Below, piece by piece: positions 4,024 through 15,845 of a DNA stretch of 57,886 nucleotides. The notes beneath the pieces are model-generated. The model was not told the origin of the DNA. It saw only the letters and a list, made by a program, of their open reading frames with translations, and did not search any database. This DNA is from a virus (lineage: Duplodnaviria > Caudoviricetes), in the IMG/VR virus record IMGVR_UViG_3300021403_000001, positions 1-57,886 of that record. One strand, 5' to 3'. Position 1 is the stretch's first letter, and every line of letters starts with the position of its first letter. A program made the translations under genes and the position numbers.

Positions 4024-4554
4024 TTACTGATCGTCGTCCGCGATGTAATCGATCAGGAGCGTCACTTTGCCGGCCGTTGCCGCAGTGCCCGTCTGCGTAT
4101 AGCGGACGTACAGGTCAAAGCCGCCCTGCGATCCGGTTGCGGTGCCAGAGGTCACGACAAGGCCAAGGCCTGCCGCGCTGCTCATGTTCTGGTTGCCTGT
4201 GGTCGCAGCAACGCAGTTGGTGCCAGCGGTGGTGCCAGAGGCGAGGAAATCGCCACCGGTCGCCGTTGAGCCGATGGTGAGGTTGTTGGTGGTGCCGGCA
4301 TTGAACGCCGTGGTCACATAGCAGCGGATGCCAGTGATGTAAGCGTTCGCCGGGATGGCGCCGATCTTGACGCCGGCACCGATATTGGCGTCGTTGAAGT
4401 TCACTACCTTGCGGAAGTGAACCGAGGTCTGGATTTGCAGCACGCGCGGCGAGAAGCTGGGCGGACTCGTCAGAGCCAACACAGGCACGGTGAACACGAA
4501 GGCGGTCAGTGCGACCGACAGCGCGCCAAGGATACGGGAACGAAGGGTTTTCAT
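4024..4554 (-). CDS. Putative capsid decoration protein with a signal-peptide-like N-terminus
   Basis: Follows the capsid gene; beta-rich VTTAFNAGTTNNLTIG; N-terminus MKTLRSRILGALSVALTAFVFTVPVLA. Confidence 0.55.
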   Translation of the reverse strand: MKTLRSRILGALSVALTAFVFTVPVLALTSPPSFSPRVLQIQTSVHFRKVVNFNDANIGAGVKIGAIPANAYITGIRCYVTTAFNAGTTNNLTIGSTATGGDFLASGTTAGTNCVAATTGNQNMSSAAGLGLVVTSGTATGSQGGFDLYVRYTQTGTAATAGKVTLLIDYIADDDQ

Positions 4555-4623: not shown

Positions 4624-5772
4624 TTAGGTGTCGCTCGCCGACGCGACGAACGCGGTGAAGATTCCCCACTCCTTCAGATTTCCAGCGAGGTTCTTCTTGG
4701 CGATCTTGGCGAGGCCGTAGGCCATCTTGATGCCGGCGCCGCGGAAGAACTGATAGTCGTCTTCCTTGAGGAACGTCGGAGTCGGCGCGCGGCCCCAGCA
4801 ATGAGCCATCGCGGACTGCCCGCAGATGAACACCGGAGCAACCTGCCCCGCCGAACCGCCGGCCGTGGTGTAGAAGGTCGGCAGACGGATATCCATCTCG
4901 GGGATTTCCCGGATGATCATGCCGCTGTAGATCAGATCGCCGTCCTGGAAGAGCGGGTTCTTGTCCATTCCGTTGCCTTCACGGGCGCGAGCCTGGGTGT
5001 TGGCATTGATGATGGTGGTGTCCAGCTGAAGATCGCGGAAGGCATTCGACCCTGCGAACACCATGAAGTATTCGCGGTTGGTGTTCTTCACCATGTAGGG
5101 GCGAATGCGCGGATTGGCCTTCTTCGCCAGCCGCTTCGCCTTCAGGAGTGTCGCTGCGGAGAGCGTCATGCCGGAGGTGATGTTGGCCATCGAGGAGGCG
5201 AAGTTGCCCGCCACGAGGTTGCCGGTTGCGCCGCCGATCAGAACGCGGTCAGCGTTGTCCGTGATCCACGTATTGCGTTGGGCAGCGGTCGCCGCATCGA
5301 ACAGGATGCCGTTGACACGCTGGCCACCAGCCGAACCGAGGCCCGCAGGCGCCGCTTCAGCGGGGAGCGCATAGAAGGCATCGATGATCTCGTCACGGAT
5401 GAGCTCCTTGCCCCAGTCTTCAAGCAGGGGCTTGGCTTCCGCGAAGATGTCGATGGACGACTTCTGCTCTTCCGCGTTGTTGATCTTGATGGCGTTGCGG
5501 CCCCAATCGATGTACGCGCGGAAGCCGTAGTTATCGATGGTCTCTTCGTTGCCGACCAGGATGCCGGAACCGACAGGCTGGTTCTTCAGGCGAGCCACGA
5601 GCGGCACGTTGATCTGCTCGCCGCCCTTCTTGAGGTCGTTGACGACGCGGATGATCGCGTTCGCCGATGCGCTCATGTAGGGCCCGAAGAGATTTGCGCG
5701 GATGTATTCCCGCGTGATCTCTCGACGGAACTGAATGAGTTTATTGTTGACTTGAACGGTAGTTGAGGCCAC
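4624..5772 (-). CDS. Major capsid protein (N4-gp56/DUF4043-like)
   Basis: 382 aa; GTG start after AAGGAG; LVGNEETID and NPLFQDGDLIYSGMIIRE motifs; follows the scaffold gene. Confidence 0.85.
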   Translation of the reverse strand: MASTTVQVNNKLIQFRREITREYIRANLFGPYMSASANAIIRVVNDLKKGGEQINVPLVARLKNQPVGSGILVGNEETIDNYGFRAYIDWGRNAIKINNAEEQKSSIDIFAEAKPLLEDWGKELIRDEIIDAFYALPAEAAPAGLGSAGGQRVNGILFDAATAAQRNTWITDNADRVLIGGATGNLVAGNFASSMANITSGMTLSAATLLKAKRLAKKANPRIRPYMVKNTNREYFMVFAGSNAFRDLQLDTTIINANTQARAREGNGMDKNPLFQDGDLIYSGMIIREIPEMDIRLPTFYTTAGGSAGQVAPVFICGQSAMAHCWGRAPTPTFLKEDDYQFFRGAGIKMAYGLAKIAKKNLAGNLKEWGIFTAFVASASDT

Positions 5773-7120: not shown

Positions 7121-9148
7121 TCAGCGCATCAGGTGCTCGGCGTAACCGCCTTGCGGTACGGTGCCGGGATGCACCGGAGGCACGGCCTGCGGTCCCGGCG
7201 AGGTCGGCGGCAACTGCCCACCGTGCAGCCCCTTGGCGAAAGCGAGCGGCAATTGCAGTTGATCGGCCTGCGGCGTGACTTGCGGCGCGTTCTGCACGGG
7301 GCCAGTCGGGGCCTGCGGCTGCTGGATGTACGGCCGGTCCTGTTGGTCTTTCTGGAACTGCTGGACGCCCATCTGCTCGGCTTCTTGCGCGCTTACACCG
7401 GCCCGAGCGGCGTTGTAGGCCGCCTGCGTAATGCGCTGAATCGAGCCTGCGTTCTTCTCCGCAATCTCCGCGTCGATACGCTCCACATATTTGAGCTTGC
7501 CAGCCTGTTCGATCGGGTCCGGAGGCGTCTGAAGCATCTGCATGTACTTCTGTTTTTCACGATACGGGATCGGCAGAAGGTTCACGATCATCGCCGGTGG
7601 GAACTGCACGCCAGATTGCTGCGCGGCCATGATGATATCGAGCGTATCGGCCTGCATGTTGATGGCGTCGGGACCCTCATCAAGTATGATGTCCACGTTG
7701 ATGGCGCCGAGATAGTTCACAAGCTGCGGCCTGCCCCACTGATCAAGGTCAAGCCCGTTCAACTGGATGAATTGCGCCAACTGCTGGTCATCGGTCACGC
7801 GAATCCACCGCTCCGCGGTCCAGTAGCGCTGCGCGCAATTCCAAACAGCTTGGTAAATGCGAAGCTTCCAACCTCTTAACGCAAGTATGAACGGGCCAAG
7901 CTCTGCCGTGCCAGCTTGCTGCATCAGGTTGACGGCGCGGCCGGAAACATTCTTCGGCACTTGCTCCGACCCCGGCATCACTGGCGTTGCAGGTGCCGAT
8001 TGATCTATCTCGGCTTTTGCTTCCTGAAGGAAGGCCATTTGGCCAGCGAGGTCGCCAGTCTTGTCGTCCGGTTTGATATCAAGGCCGGGGTTTTTCTCGA
8101 TATAGCCGTCCGGCCGCGCCCATTGAGCGCGCGCCTTCTCCACATCGTCAACTGCGCCTTTGTCGGCGATCAGGCGGTTGCTGTTGGTTGTGAACAGGGC
8201 CTTAGAGCGGCGATGGTTGATCTCGTCCTGCGGCCCCTTCAGGTTACGGAAATAGCCGTAGCGGTCCCCGTCGTGATCGACCATGGCCGAAAACATGATG
8301 AAACGCGGAATCGTCTTGCCACGATCATCGAAGAACGGCGACACACCTTCATCAAGGATCACGTCCGCGATGTAGAAGCACCAATGCCACTGGTTACGGT
8401 GCTTGTACCAGTGCTCAACCAGGCGCACGCGGCGCTCGTTGGTCATGATCCAGCGATATTCGCGATCAGCGTAGGTCGTCAGTTCCGAGCCGGTATCGAC
8501 CAGCGAGCGGATGGTGTCTTCAAGGTCCGGAAATAGTTCGATGCAGGCTTCTTCATCAACCCATTTGGCCTGACCGAGATAGCGAGCGTCGTGGAAGTCC
8601 GGCCGATACGAGCGCGGATCATAGAAAAAGTCGTCCCCATAGACGATCTCGAGCTTTACGTCCGGATCGCCCTTATCGCCCTCACGGAGCTTGAACCCCA
8701 TTCCTGAAACGCCGTCGATGCAGGCATGACGGGCCACTTCCGAGCTCTCGGTCTTCCAATCATTGGAATCGAGAATGTAGCGGACAACTTGGGTGGCGAC
8801 TTCGGCGCCCTGATCATTCCTCGGATTGCGCGGAAAGGCCTTCGGGTCCTGCCGTAACCGCTCGGTGAGGCCAACCGTGGCGTTGATCTTCTTGGAAATA
8901 CGGTTGTAAGTGACCGGAAGCTGCCGGCGTGCGCGGAGAACGCGCAATTCTTCGGCGGACCATTGAGCATTATGGTAATATTGCCGAGCCTGTTGCTGCT
9001 CCGCAATCTCAGGCGTCTTCGACGTGAGATAGTCGAGATATTGCCGCTTCAGCCGCGTGACTGAAAGGTAATGGCCTTCCTCGCCATCATAGTTCGGCTG
9101 ATTTGGCGCGTTCTCAGCTTGGCTTTGCTGAATTTGAGGCTGCATCAC
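7121..9148 (-). CDS. Portal protein (P22-like)
   Basis: 675 aa; YYHNAQWSAEE, VTYNRI, DFFYDPRS, YGYFRNLKGPQDEINHRRSK and SGRA motifs. Confidence 0.88.
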   Translation of the reverse strand: MMQPQIQQSQAENAPNQPNYDGEEGHYLSVTRLKRQYLDYLTSKTPEIAEQQQARQYYHNAQWSAEELRVLRARRQLPVTYNRISKKINATVGLTERLRQDPKAFPRNPRNDQGAEVATQVVRYILDSNDWKTESSEVARHACIDGVSGMGFKLREGDKGDPDVKLEIVYGDDFFYDPRSYRPDFHDARYLGQAKWVDEEACIELFPDLEDTIRSLVDTGSELTTYADREYRWIMTNERRVRLVEHWYKHRNQWHWCFYIADVILDEGVSPFFDDRGKTIPRFIMFSAMVDHDGDRYGYFRNLKGPQDEINHRRSKALFTTNSNRLIADKGAVDDVEKARAQWARPDGYIEKNPGLDIKPDDKTGDLAGQMAFLQEAKAEIDQSAPATPVMPGSEQVPKNVSGRAVNLMQQAGTAELGPFILALRGWKLRIYQAVWNCAQRYWTAERWIRVTDDQQLAQFIQLNGLDLDQWGRPQLVNYLGAINVDIILDEGPDAINMQADTLDIIMAAQQSGVQFPPAMIVNLLPIPYREKQKYMQMLQTPPDPIEQAGKLKYVERIDAEIAEKNAGSIQRITQAAYNAARAGVSAQEAEQMGVQQFQKDQQDRPYIQQPQAPTGPVQNAPQVTPQADQLQLPLAFAKGLHGGQLPPTSPGPQAVPPVHPGTVPQGGYAEHLMR

Positions 9149-9441
9149 TCAATGATCCGCCTAGTGGCAGTGGCTTGAGCATTTGACGCGCCTGAGGCCG
9201 AGCCGGTGTAAACGACTTGGCCAGTTCGGACATTGATGACTTGGACTTGGCCGCCCCCAATTGGGCGCATTTGATACGGCGACGACTGCGCGTATTGCTG
9301 GGGCGCTTCAGATGGAGCCTGCGCAACATCGGAGGGCGCTGGCGAAACATACTGAGCGGCAATCTGGCTGTACTGCTCAGGCGAAATCAGGCCCTGCTTG
9401 GCCATCTGTCCCGCCCGCGTTAGTACGTCCTCCGCAGCCAT
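9145..9441 (-). CDS. Hypothetical protein with a SHOCT-like motif
   Basis: LTRAGQMAKQGLISPEQYSQI; overlaps the portal start. Confidence 0.6.
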   Translation of the reverse strand: MAAEDVLTRAGQMAKQGLISPEQYSQIAAQYVSPAPSDVAQAPSEAPQQYAQSSPYQMRPIGGGQVQVINVRTGQVVYTGSASGASNAQATATRRIIE

Positions 9442-9444
9442 GCC

Positions 9445-9747
9445 TCAGCCCGTCTGCCCCGGCAGGATGTTGAGCGGAGCGCCTGCGGGATTGGTCGAGC
9501 CCATGTTGCCGCCCATGCCGCCAAGCTCAGCGCTCTGCGATCCGTATTTCTGCATCAGTTGATTGTACTGATCCGATGAAATCTGGCCTTGGCTCATCAA
9601 CTGCTTCGCCTTAGCGAGCAACGCGGATGCCGGATTCTGCTGCTGCTGCTGGCCCTGCGCGCCCTGAGCGGGTTGTTGCTGCTGGAAGACGTTGGGCGCG
9701 CCATAGTTCGTCGGCGACGGGACAGCCGTATAATCAGTTGTGCTCAT
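9445..9747 (-). CDS. Gln-rich protein with a SHOCT-like motif
   Basis: LAKAKQLMSQGQISSDQYNQL; RBS TAAGGAG. Confidence 0.6.
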   Translation of the reverse strand: MSTTDYTAVPSPTNYGAPNVFQQQQPAQGAQGQQQQQNPASALLAKAKQLMSQGQISSDQYNQLMQKYGSQSAELGGMGGNMGSTNPAGAPLNILPGQTG

Positions 9748-9758
9748 CCGGTTACTCC

Positions 9759-10827
9759 TTATGCAGCCTTCCGGCTTTCTTCAGCAAGACGCGGAGCACC
9801 CCGCGCGAGTTTGAGAATGTTTCGGGCCGCGTTTACGTCGCGGTCATGGCTCGCCACAATACGAACAATCCCAAACTCTTATTCCAAGACCTGCGATACC
9901 TTTCGGCCTCTCCGGTGGCAGGCCGCCACAGCAAGAGCAGGCTTGGGTCGTAAACCTCTCGTCCACCTCTAGGAACCTGCCCGCTTTGTAGCGCAGCATG
10001 TTTCGAAAGGCGGACCATCCAGCATCGAGAACGGATTTTGCTGCTCTCGTTTGCGCTAGATTTTTTGCATTCACATTCCCAACCGCGATGAACGCGTATT
10101 CGCGGGCAAGATGTGTAGAAAGTTTGTGGTGAAAATCTCTGCGCGCGTTGGCTATCTTGATGTAGATCGCTTTGGCGCGACGCTTATTGGAGGCCCGTTG
10201 CGCTGTCGCCAACTGATCGGCCCATTTGGCTAGATGGCGAGGGTTTTCAATAATCTGTCCAGTCGATAGGGCGGCTAGAGACTTTAAGCCCAAATCGATG
10301 CCTATCTCGCCGCGCGCAGGTTGCGATTGGTCGCCAGCTTCGGCAAAGAGAATGACGTACCATCGTCCAAGGGCGTCTTCGGTGAAAGCACCACCCTTTG
10401 CCGTAGTTGGAACGGGTCTTCCACCTACCCAGAAGTAAAGTTTCTTGCCAAGATAGACGATACTATTGCCCTCAATTCGTCGACTTTGACTCTGAAACGG
10501 TATCCAGCCGCGAGCACGCTTGCCGCCAAAGCTAGCCCTAAAACTCGGACATTTTCGGTTCTTGTCGCGCGACTGTACAAACTGTCTGCAAACCTCTTGC
10601 ACCGTCTGTTGGTGGATTCCGAGATCGGCGCCTACGCCCTTGCATTGTCGCGCGAAGTCAAATTTCGTCGGCCAAGGGCGCTTCGGTGCTCCGGCAAGAT
10701 ATCGATCTTGGATGTCTCGCTGTGCTGCAGAACACCAATTCCACACTTGGTTGACTGCATAGGCGTGTCGAGTCAGTGCCCGGCGCGCGTGCTTGTCCTT
10801 GATGCGATATTTGTAGGCCTTGAGCAC
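9759..10827 (-). pseudogene. tnpB: TnpB-family RNA-guided nuclease, frameshifted just before RuvC-III
   Basis: GTG start at 10827 after AAGAGG; KAYKYRI, GIDLGLK (RuvC-I), VDERFTTQACSCC and WDCSYCG motifs; stop at 9844; HDRDVNAARNIL...RKAA* continues in another frame (9759-9848). Confidence 0.85.
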
Positions 10828-10835
10828 ATGCCCTC

Positions 10836-11243
10836 TTATGCGGCGGCGTCTGCGCGTGTGCGGGCGATGAGTTCTCGCAGCTTCCGCTTGTTTTCGCCGT
10901 CGATGAAATAACCAAGCCCCCATTTGCAGGAGACCTTCACACCGTACTTGCGAAGTCTTACCCGAAGTTTGCAGATGAATACGTCGATGATCTTGGGGTC
11001 CGGCTCCTTGTCCCAAGTGTTCGGCATGCCGGAATAAATCGCGAGCAACGCTCCTTCTCGCGTGATGATCTCACGCTTCAACAGCATCGTGAGCAGCGCG
11101 CTCATATTGCGGGGAATGCCGAACTCTGGCGGCAAATCCACCTTCATGCCGAGCTCCCGCTCGAGCAATTCGATCCGGTCAAGCAACGGCTCGCAGCCTG
11201 CAGGCCATTCCCGATCATCAGGAACGATTGAGGGCGAGATCAT
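10836..11243 (-). CDS. Receiver-less CtrA-like winged-helix DNA-binding protein
   Basis: EPDPKIIDVFICKLRVRL...WGLGY resembles the CtrA C-terminal EPELKIIDVFICKLRKKL...WGRGY (recalled from memory); short N-terminal coiled coil. Confidence 0.8.
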   Translation of the reverse strand: MISPSIVPDDREWPAGCEPLLDRIELLERELGMKVDLPPEFGIPRNMSALLTMLLKREIITREGALLAIYSGMPNTWDKEPDPKIIDVFICKLRVRLRKYGVKVSCKWGLGYFIDGENKRKLRELIARTRADAAA

Positions 11244-11614
11244 GCTTCGCCCCGTTCGGCGCGGACCAACTCAGCAACTTCGGCCTTCATCTCGGGCGTC
11301 ATGCGATAGCCGATGCCGTGCAGACAAATGAAATCCAGCCCATGCGGGCGAATCTTGTGCCTGATCTTGTTGATGTAAACGTGCAGTATCTTCTCGCCCG
11401 GCCTCACTTTCTTGTCCTGGTACATCGCCTCGAAAATCTCCTCCCGGCGCGCCAAGTCGCGAGCCAAGATGACGCCAAATATCGCCCGCTCTTGCCGCGA
11501 TAGCTTCAGACACGTCGGAATGTCCTGATTGAACCCCAGCACGGTCTCAAGCTGCGCCACGCGCTCTTTCAGCCGCTCGTTCTCTACCTGCAATTCGTGA
11601 TCTTGGAGGGTCAA
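11240..11614 (-). CDS. OmpR/CtrA-type winged-helix protein with an N-terminal coiled coil
   Basis: ENERLKERVAQLE; LSRQERAIF; KILHVYINKIRHKI...GIGY. Confidence 0.75.
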   Translation of the reverse strand: MTLQDHELQVENERLKERVAQLETVLGFNQDIPTCLKLSRQERAIFGVILARDLARREEIFEAMYQDKKVRPGEKILHVYINKIRHKIRPHGLDFICLHGIGYRMTPEMKAEVAELVRAERGEA

Positions 11615-14309: not shown

Positions 14310-15845
14310 CTAAATGGTCTTATCGTATTCCGGCAGCGCTTCGTTGAAGTCGTCCTCTCGTGAATGATAGCCGTCGTTAAGATGGTCGGGTTCTTCTTCC
14401 TTGGGCTTCTGGCCCGTGGTCATCTTGTCGAGCAGTTGGCCAACCAAGCCCATGGCGTCAACAAAGTCGTCATGCTTGCCGGCGGGAAACCCCATCATTT
14501 CAGCCCGGCAGTCCGGCCACCATTCCGAGTTCATAGGCACGTAAAGCCCGTGAAGGCCCATGCGACCGCGGATGGATTGAGCTCGGATGGACTTATCACC
14601 CTTGTTCACGGGGAACTGTTCGCGGGCACAGTAGGCCTTGCGCTTGCGGGCTTCCTGCTCAAGGAACGGACCAACGCCGCTCCTGATCTGGCCGGTTTCC
14701 TCAGCCCAACCGATTGGCTTCCAGTGCTTGACCAGATCGCACCAAGCGGCAACCCATTTGTCGGAACTGGCCTGTTGTCGCCAAACATCCAAGAGATACA
14801 TACGGTCTTCCGGATCAATGCCAACGATGACATGCGCTGTGTAATCCCCTCCCGATTCGGTCACGGCATAGTCGGAAGCGCCATAGATGCGCAGCGTCTT
14901 CAGGTCCGGCCGCTTTGAGTATGGTTTCAGCCATTCGGCGAGGAAATAGGCACCGGTCTCCGGACTTGGCTTCTGCTGGTACAGCGCCGACCACTTCCGG
15001 GGATCCGATCTGGCCTCCAAGACCTGGGCCTCGGTGAACCATTCCGGCCAAAGCCGCTGGCCAATCTCGCGCCCAAGAGGATCGTCGGCCTCGGCTATCA
15101 TCGGCAGGATGATCCGGCGCCATTTGATGCCGAGCGCTTCGTCTCGTTCCCTGATGCGCCCGAGCAGATCGAACTCGTTGAAGCGGGTCATGATGATAAC
15201 GCGCTTGGCGTTTGGCTTCAGGCGCGGAACGAAGTCGCCCGTGTACCACTCCCAAGCCTGTTCTTGAATTGTTGCGCTCTGAGCGTCTTCCCATCTGGCG
15301 AACGGGTCTTCCACAAGCCCGATATCTGCGCGCTCGCCCGCGATGGCAACGCCGACGCCGGCCGCTCGATATCCGCCACCCGACGCCAGCGCCCAATCCG
15401 CCATGGCAGACGAGTCCGACGCGATCGATAGTCCAAGCACATCGGAATGCTTCTCAACGAGATTCCTGACGACGCGGCCAACCTTGCGTTGGGCAAATTC
15501 CTGAGTGTGCGAACCGCTCAGCACCAGATGCGTAGGGTTCCTTGCCATGTACCAAGGTGGGAACAAATGCGAAGCATATGTGGTCTTTGCCGAACCAGGC
15601 GGGGCCGATATCTCAAGCCGGTCAAACTCTCCGCGCTCGAGCGCTTCTAGTTCCCTGTTGATCAGCCGATGATGTAAGGCCGGCTCATAGCCGCAGTACC
15701 GCGCCCAATCGTCCAAGCTGTTGCGGACGGTCGCTCGAAACCGCCCCTTGTCCCGCTCAGTGGCGCGTCTCTGCTTCTCCGCTATCACCGCCGCCAGTGA
15801 CGGAAGCTGAGCGGAGGATAGTTTCAAGCCGGTCGAGGTCAGCAT
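14310..15845 (-). CDS. terL: Terminase large subunit
   Basis: APPGSAKT (Walker A), GERADIGLVEDP (Walker B), IIMTR, WSALYQQKP, ASDYA...GGDYTA and FPAGKHDDFVDA motifs; exact start uncertain. Confidence 0.92.
   Translation of the reverse strand: MLTSTGLKLSSAQLPSLAAVIAEKQRRATERDKGRFRATVRNSLDDWARYCGYEPALHHRLINRELEALERGEFDRLEISAPPGSAKTTYASHLFPPWYMARNPTHLVLSGSHTQEFAQRKVGRVVRNLVEKHSDVLGLSIASDSSAMADWALASGGGYRAAGVGVAIAGERADIGLVEDPFARWEDAQSATIQEQAWEWYTGDFVPRLKPNAKRVIIMTRFNEFDLLGRIRERDEALGIKWRRIILPMIAEADDPLGREIGQRLWPEWFTEAQVLEARSDPRKWSALYQQKPSPETGAYFLAEWLKPYSKRPDLKTLRIYGASDYAVTESGGDYTAHVIVGIDPEDRMYLLDVWRQQASSDKWVAAWCDLVKHWKPIGWAEETGQIRSGVGPFLEQEARKRKAYCAREQFPVNKGDKSIRAQSIRGRMGLHGLYVPMNSEWWPDCRAEMMGFPAGKHDDFVDAMGLVGQLLDKMTTGQKPKEEEPDHLNDGYHSREDDFNEALPEYDKTI

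Follow-up and report, generated by a model that had tools for sequence, protein, structure and literature searches.

What does a solitary tnpB gene represent in the late operon of a phage, when its reading frame stops just ahead of the last catalytic motif of the nuclease? The question is raised by the virus record IMGVR_UViG_3300021403_000001, a complete IMG/VR entry (57,886 bp) bounded by direct terminal repeats, which we analyzed over its whole length (the window). An original prediction, made from the sequence of this window, had described the gene as a stand-alone TnpB without insertion sequence (IS) ends and had regarded it as either decaying or domesticated. We find it likely that positions 9738 to 10829 form a compact TnpA-less TnpB-omegaRNA element of the homing type, which belongs to a lineage with a rearranged RuvC-II motif, and that the 2-nt deletion behind the frameshift either stems from an assembly error or represents a rare dead allele.

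Insertion Site

We compared the locus to contigs from other sequencing runs and to a related phage. The comparison delimits the following feature.

9738 to 10829, minus strand: inserted TnpB-omegaRNA element of 1,092 bp, defined by an empty-site contig and by GC content

In a 303-nt contig from a different soil study (run X2), a part aligning to 9634-9737 is followed by a part aligning to 10830-11015, such that 1,092 bases are skipped and 9 other letters lie between the two aligned parts. On the minus strand of this relative, the stop codon of a winged-helix gene is followed by GAGGGC, five bases, and the ATG of a protein opening with M-A-D-Y. An exact match in a contig from run X3 likewise begins at 10830. 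The element has a GC content of 0.543 compared with 0.585 for the genome, and the codon composition of tnpB is foreign, with a GC content at third codon positions of 0.54 versus 0.70-0.75 in four neighboring genes. The original prediction had expected that removal of the gene with one copy of a flanking repeat would leave a clean junction; the real empty site in run X2 differs from the one predicted.

In the related IMG/VR phage L165, the regulator is 80% identical and the terminase and portal genes are syntenic. An unrelated ORF of 80 amino acids (L165:3866-4108) occupies the slot equivalent to tnpB in this phage. Insertions in the gap that separates the regulator gene from the small Gln-rich gene are thus variable. 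One site is occupied in the record and empty in the X2 contig, as expected of a homing element, and contains another gene in L165. When viral contigs were scanned for exact matches to 24 or 18 bases of the right flank, 0 further occupied or empty alleles were obtained.

Reading Frame of tnpB

9844 to 10827, minus strand: tnpB frame 0 as found in the record, 327 amino acids plus TGA (GTG start at 10827, TGA at 9846-9844), identified with Pfam and NCBIfam
9759 to 9848, minus strand: +1-frame tail HDRDVNAARNIL..., from HDRD (RuvC-III) to Ala-Ala-TAA (9848-9762, TAA at 9761-9759)
9851 to 9852, no strand: site of the 2-nt difference, with CG present in other assemblies, from contig comparison

The tnpB protein matches the Pfam families OrfB_IS605 (E 2.7e-15) and Cas12f1-like_TNB (E 3.3e-10) as well as ISDra2 TnpB in the PDB (E 5e-23). 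The NCBIfam guided_TnpB model scores 165 bits with the 327-amino acid form and 194 bits with the intact form, against a cut-off of 100. As the original prediction had noted, the frame in the record stops at TGA 9846-9844 and HDRD continues in the +1 frame from 9848, where the RuvC-III catalytic Asp codon (9839-9837) is located. The best database match, P0003, is 100% identical, is 356 amino acids long, and reads ...CSYCGASHDRD... at this position. Its residues 328-356, and those of a second intact protein, P0123, are identical to the +1-frame tail. The corresponding 90% cluster has three members: P0003 (Logan/ENA contig, 57,903 nt) and P0123 (JGI contig, 57,859 nt) are intact at 356 amino acids, and the third is the 327-amino acid form of the record.

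We compared four public runs over 9300-11300, all of them as contigs and not as reads. A Logan contig of 57,792 nt from run X1, the likely source sample, has 0 other letters and one indel in this region, a CG inserted behind 9851 at a depth of 9.98 of 9.98, which restores the frame exactly as in P0003. Contigs of TnpB relatives also contain two extra letters at the same site (CG in run X4, TG in run X2). The loss of 2 bp from GGCGCGAGC that had been postulated is exactly right, as the intact assemblies hold those two letters. The frameshift is not reproducible and represents a feature of the record, not the consensus of the phage. An inspection of reads for an assembly error had been proposed; at the level of contigs, not of raw reads, another assembly does restore the frame. 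As rare variants are lost from contigs, the deletion could reflect either an assembly error or a rare dead allele present in a minority.

Active Site and Lineage

10294 to 10296, minus strand: RuvC-I Asp, D178 (GIDLG), invariant in alignment A1
10078 to 10080, minus strand: Gly250 (IAVGNV) at the canonical RuvC-II Glu position, invariant in alignment A1
9958 to 9960, minus strand: relocated Glu, E290 (VDERFTTQ), 7 residues before the first zinc-finger Cys, invariant in alignment A1

We next examined the catalytic residues in an alignment of 30 homologs with 60-73% sequence identity (alignment A1). D178 (codon 10296-10294), G250, E290, and H328-D329-R330-D331 are invariant in all 30 sequences, and a phmmer alignment to ISDra2 TnpB (8bf8_A) places the Gly of IAVGNV opposite the catalytic Glu ('...GTEHL...') and the Glu of VDERF opposite a Pro. 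The alignments bear out the intact RuvC-I Asp in GIDLG and the replacement of the RuvC-II Glu by Gly with an alternative Glu in VDERFTTQ, both of which had been reported for this gene. A putative catalytic Asp-Glu-Asp set containing the relocated Glu is complete in the intact allele and in 30 of 30 homologs; in the record, the codon of the third Asp lies outside the reading frame. That such a layout has been described before also proved correct in view of two studies: Glu to Gly changes with a compensating Glu define the 'RIIr' branches, with RIIr-4 specifically represented in viruses (Altae-Tran 2023, PMC10691335), and the same layout, in which the Glu precedes the zinc finger by six residues, has been termed 'Ealt' (Yoon 2023, PMC10711439). 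The tnpB protein has this arrangement of a Gly at the canonical Glu position and a Glu before the first CxxC. RuvC flexibility of this kind produces spurious 'dead' calls, as cautioned in the TldR preprint (PMC10705468). By comparison of sequences, the Gly at RuvC-II thus does not seem to mark a dead site, and the rearranged active site is a lineage trait, with the position of E290 in the active site taken from published models of the lineage.

The original prediction had asked for a truncation conserved among homologs. None is found among the best 120 of 4,680 matches (from 8,000 scored candidates), and the other assemblies of the same phage are intact. Of these 120 proteins, 119 are 349-400 amino acids long, and the sole short one (P0059, 326 amino acids) lacks its N terminus and keeps RuvC-III. 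The Gly/relocated-Glu layout is also present in three TnpBs from isolated phages.

Putative Guide RNA Scaffold and Right End

9739 to 9840, minus strand: omegaRNA-like scaffold with a hairpin (9789-9806), a 3-bp stem (9779-9788), and a CCGG stem (9771-9774 with 9748-9751), from alignment A2
9739 to 9753, minus strand: right-end terminal motif (9751-9739 reads ...CCGGATGAGCACA), conserved in 16 relatives

The 3' end of the element was aligned with those of 16 relatives with 53-64% protein identity (alignment A2, 17 elements including the record). The 17 elements have a common order, consisting of a hairpin, the conserved GAAAGCCGG, a variable hairpin, and a terminal motif with the consensus AACCGGATAAGCACG. 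Past this motif the sequences are unrelated, with 15 different flanks among the 16 relatives (L007 equals L008). RNAalifold predicts 27 pairs in A2, ten of them with compensatory changes. Counting pairs across the alignment, 96.5% of the cells are paired versus 34-42% when the partners are slid, and 46 cells carry double changes compared with 15.0 in shuffles, none of which reaches 46 (0 of 500). In the main hairpin (9789-9806), double changes occur in four of six pairs and no pair is broken. A relative of the element, L173, contains a 42-nt hairpin-capable insert in the loop of the main hairpin, within the coding region (about 2560-2601); this is typical of a tolerated RNA loop.

Covariance model R1 recovers a complete scaffold copy as its sole match in the whole record, which was part of the training set. 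A model built from 16 elements matches the tnpB 3' end in 82 rows from 88 sources; this model includes conserved coding sequence, and its scores are not independent evidence of structure. A structured guide RNA encoded at the 3' end and running into the flank, as in other TnpBs, is thus suggested by the covariation and the sharp conservation boundary, and the 3' end has the look of a guide-RNA scaffold with a scaffold/guide boundary. The trans-encoded RNA considered earlier is not supported, as the scaffold lies in cis and the covariance-model scan gave no second copy in the phage. The proposed absence of IS ends holds only in part: there is no TCAA end of the IS608 type, but a covarying 3' scaffold with the terminal motif of the family is present.

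Compared with the consensus of the terminal motif, the record has an ATA to ATG change that creates the ATG of the next gene (9747-9745). A GGAG (9758-9755) is located in the variable hairpin, 7 nt upstream of this ATG. The protein encoded by the next gene starts with M-S-T-T-D-Y in the record, M-A-D-Y in the X2 relative, and M-D-Y in L165. As codons for M-S-T-T are absent from both related phages, the insertion appears to have displaced the original start, which the tail of the element would now supply. The right end of the element may thus have been co-opted as the GGAG and ATG of the downstream gene.

Left End

10821 to 10828, minus strand: left-end vestige of 8 nt, complementary to 9739-9746 and overlapping the GTG start, evaluated by a chance test

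Only two bases separate the 10830|10829 junction from the GTG start. By chance, an 8-nt terminal inverted repeat within 2 nt of both junctions is rare, with 164 occurrences in 200,000 random placements. When the final 13 nt are used as a probe on the left end of the record, 8 of 13 bases match (p 0.52), which is not significant, and the vestige is suggestive only. In five of 15 usable relatives (L012, L013, L168, L169, and L171), an inverted copy of the last 13 nt of the right end is located upstream of the tnpB start, at a distance of 36 or 64 nt and with 10-13 of 13 bases matching (p <= 0.005). The inverted repeat extends to 21-36 nt in L012 (2953-2988 with 4071-4106), L013 (2967-2987 with 4098-4118), L168, and L169, a score that 0 of 30 shuffles reach; in L171, a 10 of 13 copy lies 64 nt upstream. 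Long inverted ends are absent from most relatives examined. In the review PMC13565253, IS605 and IS607 are described as being without terminal inverted repeats, so that the inverted copies would be unexpected for either, and TnpBs inside repeat-bounded elements with DDE transposases are also reported. In L013, the same ~15 bases including an ATG are found on both sides of the element (about 2952-2971 and 4117-4135), and the start of the downstream gene is kept. This flanking repeat, at one locus only, resembles the outcome of a long target duplication or of repair.

The 9/10 direct repeat described as flanking tnpB in the record does exist at the positions given, and is within chance: a 9/10 match is reached in 35 of 500 shuffles and in 48 of 500 random window pairs. 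Of the two copies, the downstream one simply reflects the conserved Ala-Ala-stop with which TnpB terminates. The upstream one is where the regulator gene ends, a stretch also present in the empty-site contig. We thus rejected the repeat as a target-site duplication, the match being at chance level.

Putative Guide and Target

9719 to 9738, minus strand: putative guide, the first 20 nt past the right end, placed by the scaffold/flank boundary
10831 to 10835, minus strand: GAGGG, one base left of the element, Shine-Dalgarno sequence of the slot and candidate transposon-associated motif (TAM), also present in the empty-site contig

Among the differences listed for the X2 relative, none falls within 9719-9737 (41 further rows lie beyond this listing). 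The only exact copy of the putative guide in the record is the guide itself. A second near-match at 648-663, with three mismatches, is within chance and was discarded. GAGGG is the TAM of some IS607 TnpBs, in four of 22 strains according to PMC11061315, and we keep it only as a TAM candidate here.

Distribution and Transposase Partners

An alignment-based scan was required to find relatives in viral contigs, as a scan with the single protein found none; it confirmed at least 485, and 65 records of isolated phages match. The rearranged TnpB lineage is common in phages. Among 185,579 species genomes, the best match is 64% identical and located at a Caulobacter contig end, and the next one is 48% identical. 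Of the cellular genomes, only one contains a close relative (64%), at the contig start of Caulobacter sp. BE264 (L085); the right-end motif there is the same, which hints at an alphaproteobacterial host range for this group of elements. The flanks of 17 close TnpB loci are not syntenic with those of the record; the similarities seen are limited to a single shared gene (L006) and a single strong match (L170), each to a distant part of the record. In a 103-kb virus record (L011:2980-3213), a tnpB relative has an in-frame TAG after about 75 codons, with similarity continuing to the end; this may be a pseudogene or a case of stop-codon recoding.

No match to a Y1 TnpA (PF01797) or a serine recombinase (PF00239) was obtained in the whole 57,886-bp record, in searches in which the positive controls were detected, and the claim that tnpA is missing is thus upheld. 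A Y1 TnpA was found in none of five related virus records, and a resolvase in one of the five, about 55 kb from tnpB. The original prediction had named intact IS605 elements in varied contexts as homologs that would speak against it. The close homologs are indeed intact and their contexts varied, but they are without tnpA and IS605-type ends.

Gene Neighborhood

The genes surrounding tnpB are all on the minus strand, and tnpB lies in the terminase-to-portal part of the head module.

14310 to 15845, minus strand: large terminase
11240 to 11614 and 10836 to 11243, minus strand: two small winged-helix (Trans_reg_C) proteins
9445 to 9747 and 9145 to 9441, minus strand: two small Gln-rich proteins
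7121 to 9148, minus strand: portal
4624 to 5772, minus strand: major head protein

The location of tnpB in the late operon had been correctly recognized, as terminase, regulator, portal, and head genes flank it on one strand. The two winged-helix genes overlap and encode the OmpR/CtrA-type output domain only, without a receiver domain, with weak Pfam matches (E 1e-3 and 9e-6). The adjacent Gln-rich proteins, each of ~100 amino acids and encoded directly upstream of the portal gene, have a common G-x-I-S-x-x-Q-Y motif and no match in Pfam or PHROG. Antisense to tnpB, an open frame of 196 amino acids (10321-10911, plus strand) is probably a by-product of composition; a cyanophage tnpB with an expressed reverse-strand ORF has been presented in a 2026 preprint (10.64898/2026.02.14.705889).

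Discussion

Our comparisons suggest that the element at 9738-10829 is ordinary and probably active. Homing between co-infecting phages would be the mechanism best supported by the sequence data. The element lies in the head module of a soil phage, where it has apparently separated the ribosome-binding site of a small gene from its start codon. In the proposed scheme, it would be transcribed together with the late operon, with TnpB translated from the captured GAGGG site and the last ~100-180 nt of the tnpB mRNA, extended by about 16-20 nt of flank, serving as guide RNA. The resulting ribonucleoprotein could cut related phage genomes that lack the element at the slot, and recombination with the carrier genome would then copy the element in (homing), or the rival would be eliminated. 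Homing between phages has been proposed in principle in the review PMC13565253, which also describes homing by TnpB as well as a spread in a plasmid population that did not depend on TnpA. We found no experimental test of TnpB homing in phages in the literature searched.

Several observations weigh against this interpretation. An element without TnpA would need some other route to new sites. The single-sequence fold of 9739-9860 is no stabler than shuffles (z +0.72, with 151 of 200 folding as well), and the scaffold structure is thus supported by comparative evidence only. An Rfam search (E up to 10) over 9300-11300 returned three chance-level matches, with no omegaRNA family and no RAGATH-18, and there is no RNA run among the sequencing runs listed as containing the stretch. 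The left flanks of relatives with clear left ends share no motif from which a TAM could be inferred. In the X2 relative, the bases preceding the guide match differ from those left of the element, and with nine bases differing between the two junctions a clean 'TAM plus guide' target cannot be rebuilt. Finally, as rare variants are lost from Logan contigs, part of the population may indeed have the frameshift allele.

The last point leads to the reading in which the 2-nt deletion is real and fixed or common, and tnpB a young pseudogene that remained after the spread of the element had ended. The record itself has the deletion, a short GCGCG run makes slippage plausible, decay after fixation is expected of homing elements, and a minority allele would be compatible with the contig data. 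However, the record equals the intact contig over 2,001 bases save for the deletion, with no further lesions, and the intact allele is found in two other assemblies and the Logan contig, the intact proteins being 100% identical. We thus consider a decaying element unlikely, and of the 'decaying gene' put forward in the original prediction only a possible rare variant is left. It is also conceivable, but to us rather more doubtful, that the phage keeps TnpB as a weapon to destroy rival phages or host DNA and that the element does not copy itself. In favor of a weapon, a late gene conserved in related phages is matched by the putative guide, with no X2 difference among those listed for 9719-9737, and phage homing endonucleases can kill competitors too, as stated in PMC13565253. 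Homing fits the same data, and the patchy presence in a single slot together with the spread over unrelated phages argues for self-propagation.

Domestication as a TldR-like, nuclease-dead repressor co-expressed with the two winged-helix regulators would agree with the operon position beside these regulators and with the absence of RuvC-III from the record protein, which recalls the C-terminally truncated TldRs described in PMC10705468. This is very improbable, given that the truncation is found in one of three near-identical assemblies and in none of the best 120 homologs, that catalytic residues are invariant in relatives, that the gene, foreign in composition, is present as an insertion polymorphism and its homologs have different neighbors, and that the guide would derive from the adjacent coding flank, as in mobile TnpBs. 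Hardly credible at all is a programmed frameshift (+1 or -2) at ...GAG CCA TGA C..., which would provide low, controlled levels of full-length TnpB. The +1 frame does resume exactly at the conserved HDRD, and a stop codon where the shift would occur is reminiscent of +1 sites such as that of prfB. Yet all three phage homologs and all four metagenome homologs fetched have three in-frame residues from the last Cys to the His, an in-frame allele exists in the same phage, and the shift site occurs in no homolog examined. The domesticated nuclease-dead or frameshift-controlled factor of the original prediction thus finds no support, in view of the unconserved truncation, the insertion polymorphism, the foreign codons, the varied contexts, and the scaffold in cis.

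Returning to a homing-type element, we speculate, with little confidence, that it belongs to an undescribed sub-family of phage TnpA-less TnpB elements. In this sub-family, the last 13-36 nt of the scaffold would be repeated in inverted form as the left end (clear in five of 15 usable relatives, reduced to 8 nt here), and the elements would land at gene starts and thereby equip the displaced gene with another ATG and ribosome-binding site. Such ends could be marks of TnpA-independent movement, or pairing of the 5' leader with the guide-RNA tail might throttle TnpB translation.

For annotation, our findings imply that a frameshift seen in one record of a metagenome-assembled phage should not be taken as domestication. 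Although lone TnpBs are common in phages (here, 65 isolate records and at least 485 contigs of viral origin), they are filed as 'transposase'. The occupied/empty pair, together with the putative scaffold/guide boundary and target, makes RNA-guided homing between phages directly testable. Co-option of the right end as a late-gene translation start would illustrate how an insertion in an essential operon can be tolerated.

Comparison with Known Systems

We compared the element to TnpB systems and homing genes for which descriptions have been reported. The RuvC/zinc-finger half of the protein is alignable with TnpB of ISDra2 (IS200/IS605, Deinococcus radiodurans; PDB 8bf8, 8h1j) at the E value given above. 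Both belong to the guided_TnpB subfamily by NCBIfam, and both would have a guide RNA at the 3' end of the gene that runs into the flank, as judged here from sequence. In contrast to ISDra2, the protein has a Gly in place of the canonical RuvC-II Glu and a Glu beside the zinc finger, and the genome is without tnpA; IS605-type end hairpins and a TCAA-like end are missing, and the left end is almost absent. Neither the Y1 (HUH) TnpA nor the sub-terminal hairpins that define IS200/IS605 are found, and the left flank is G-rich, not AT-rich. The GAGGG one base left of the element resembles an IS607 TAM, but unlike in IS607 there is no serine recombinase, the right end is not GG, and RAGATH-18 is not matched. 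The protein scores 147 bits with the IS200_TnpB profile (cut-off 425) and 86 bits with the IS607_TnpB profile (cut-off 350) and is thus nearer to the former, while being below both cut-offs.

RIIr and 'Ealt' TnpBs and pro-Fanzors share with our protein the Glu to Gly change and the alternative Glu six residues before CxxC. The RuvC-I motif here is D-L-G and not DPG, and the spacings in P0003 (DLG and Glu 109 residues apart, the two CxxC separated by 20) are outside the regular-expression ranges given in the consulted part of PMC10711439. With TldR (prophage fliCP-tldR), the gene has in common that it is phage-borne, lacks tnpA, and in its record form is truncated before RuvC-III. It differs in that the truncation is not conserved, the catalytic residues of the clade are kept, the element is mobile, and a conserved partner gene and a promoter-matching guide are absent; the clade-wide loss of RuvC or the C terminus, and the lost ends, fixed partner, and promoter guide that characterize TldRs are thus not seen here.

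The lone tnpB genes of Ralstonia phages Raharianne and Hyacinthe, Bacillus phage Dartukuta, and Salmonella phage LPSTLL have the clade features in common with the record, namely G-N/D-V, DE-x-[YF]-[ST]-TQ, and HDRDVNAARNIL. No tnpA is listed alongside them, and they are annotated only as 'transposase'. These proteins are only 40-44% identical to the one in the record, and their right-end terminal sequences differ. The free-standing homing endonuclease genes Seg and Mob of phage T4 are likewise lone nuclease genes, located between conserved late genes and patchy in relatives. Recognition in our case would rely on an RNA guide and a TAM rather than on protein, and the insertion itself would protect the carrier from its own nuclease. 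By analogy with Seg and Mob, biased inheritance in co-infection would be the expected behavior of the tnpB element too.

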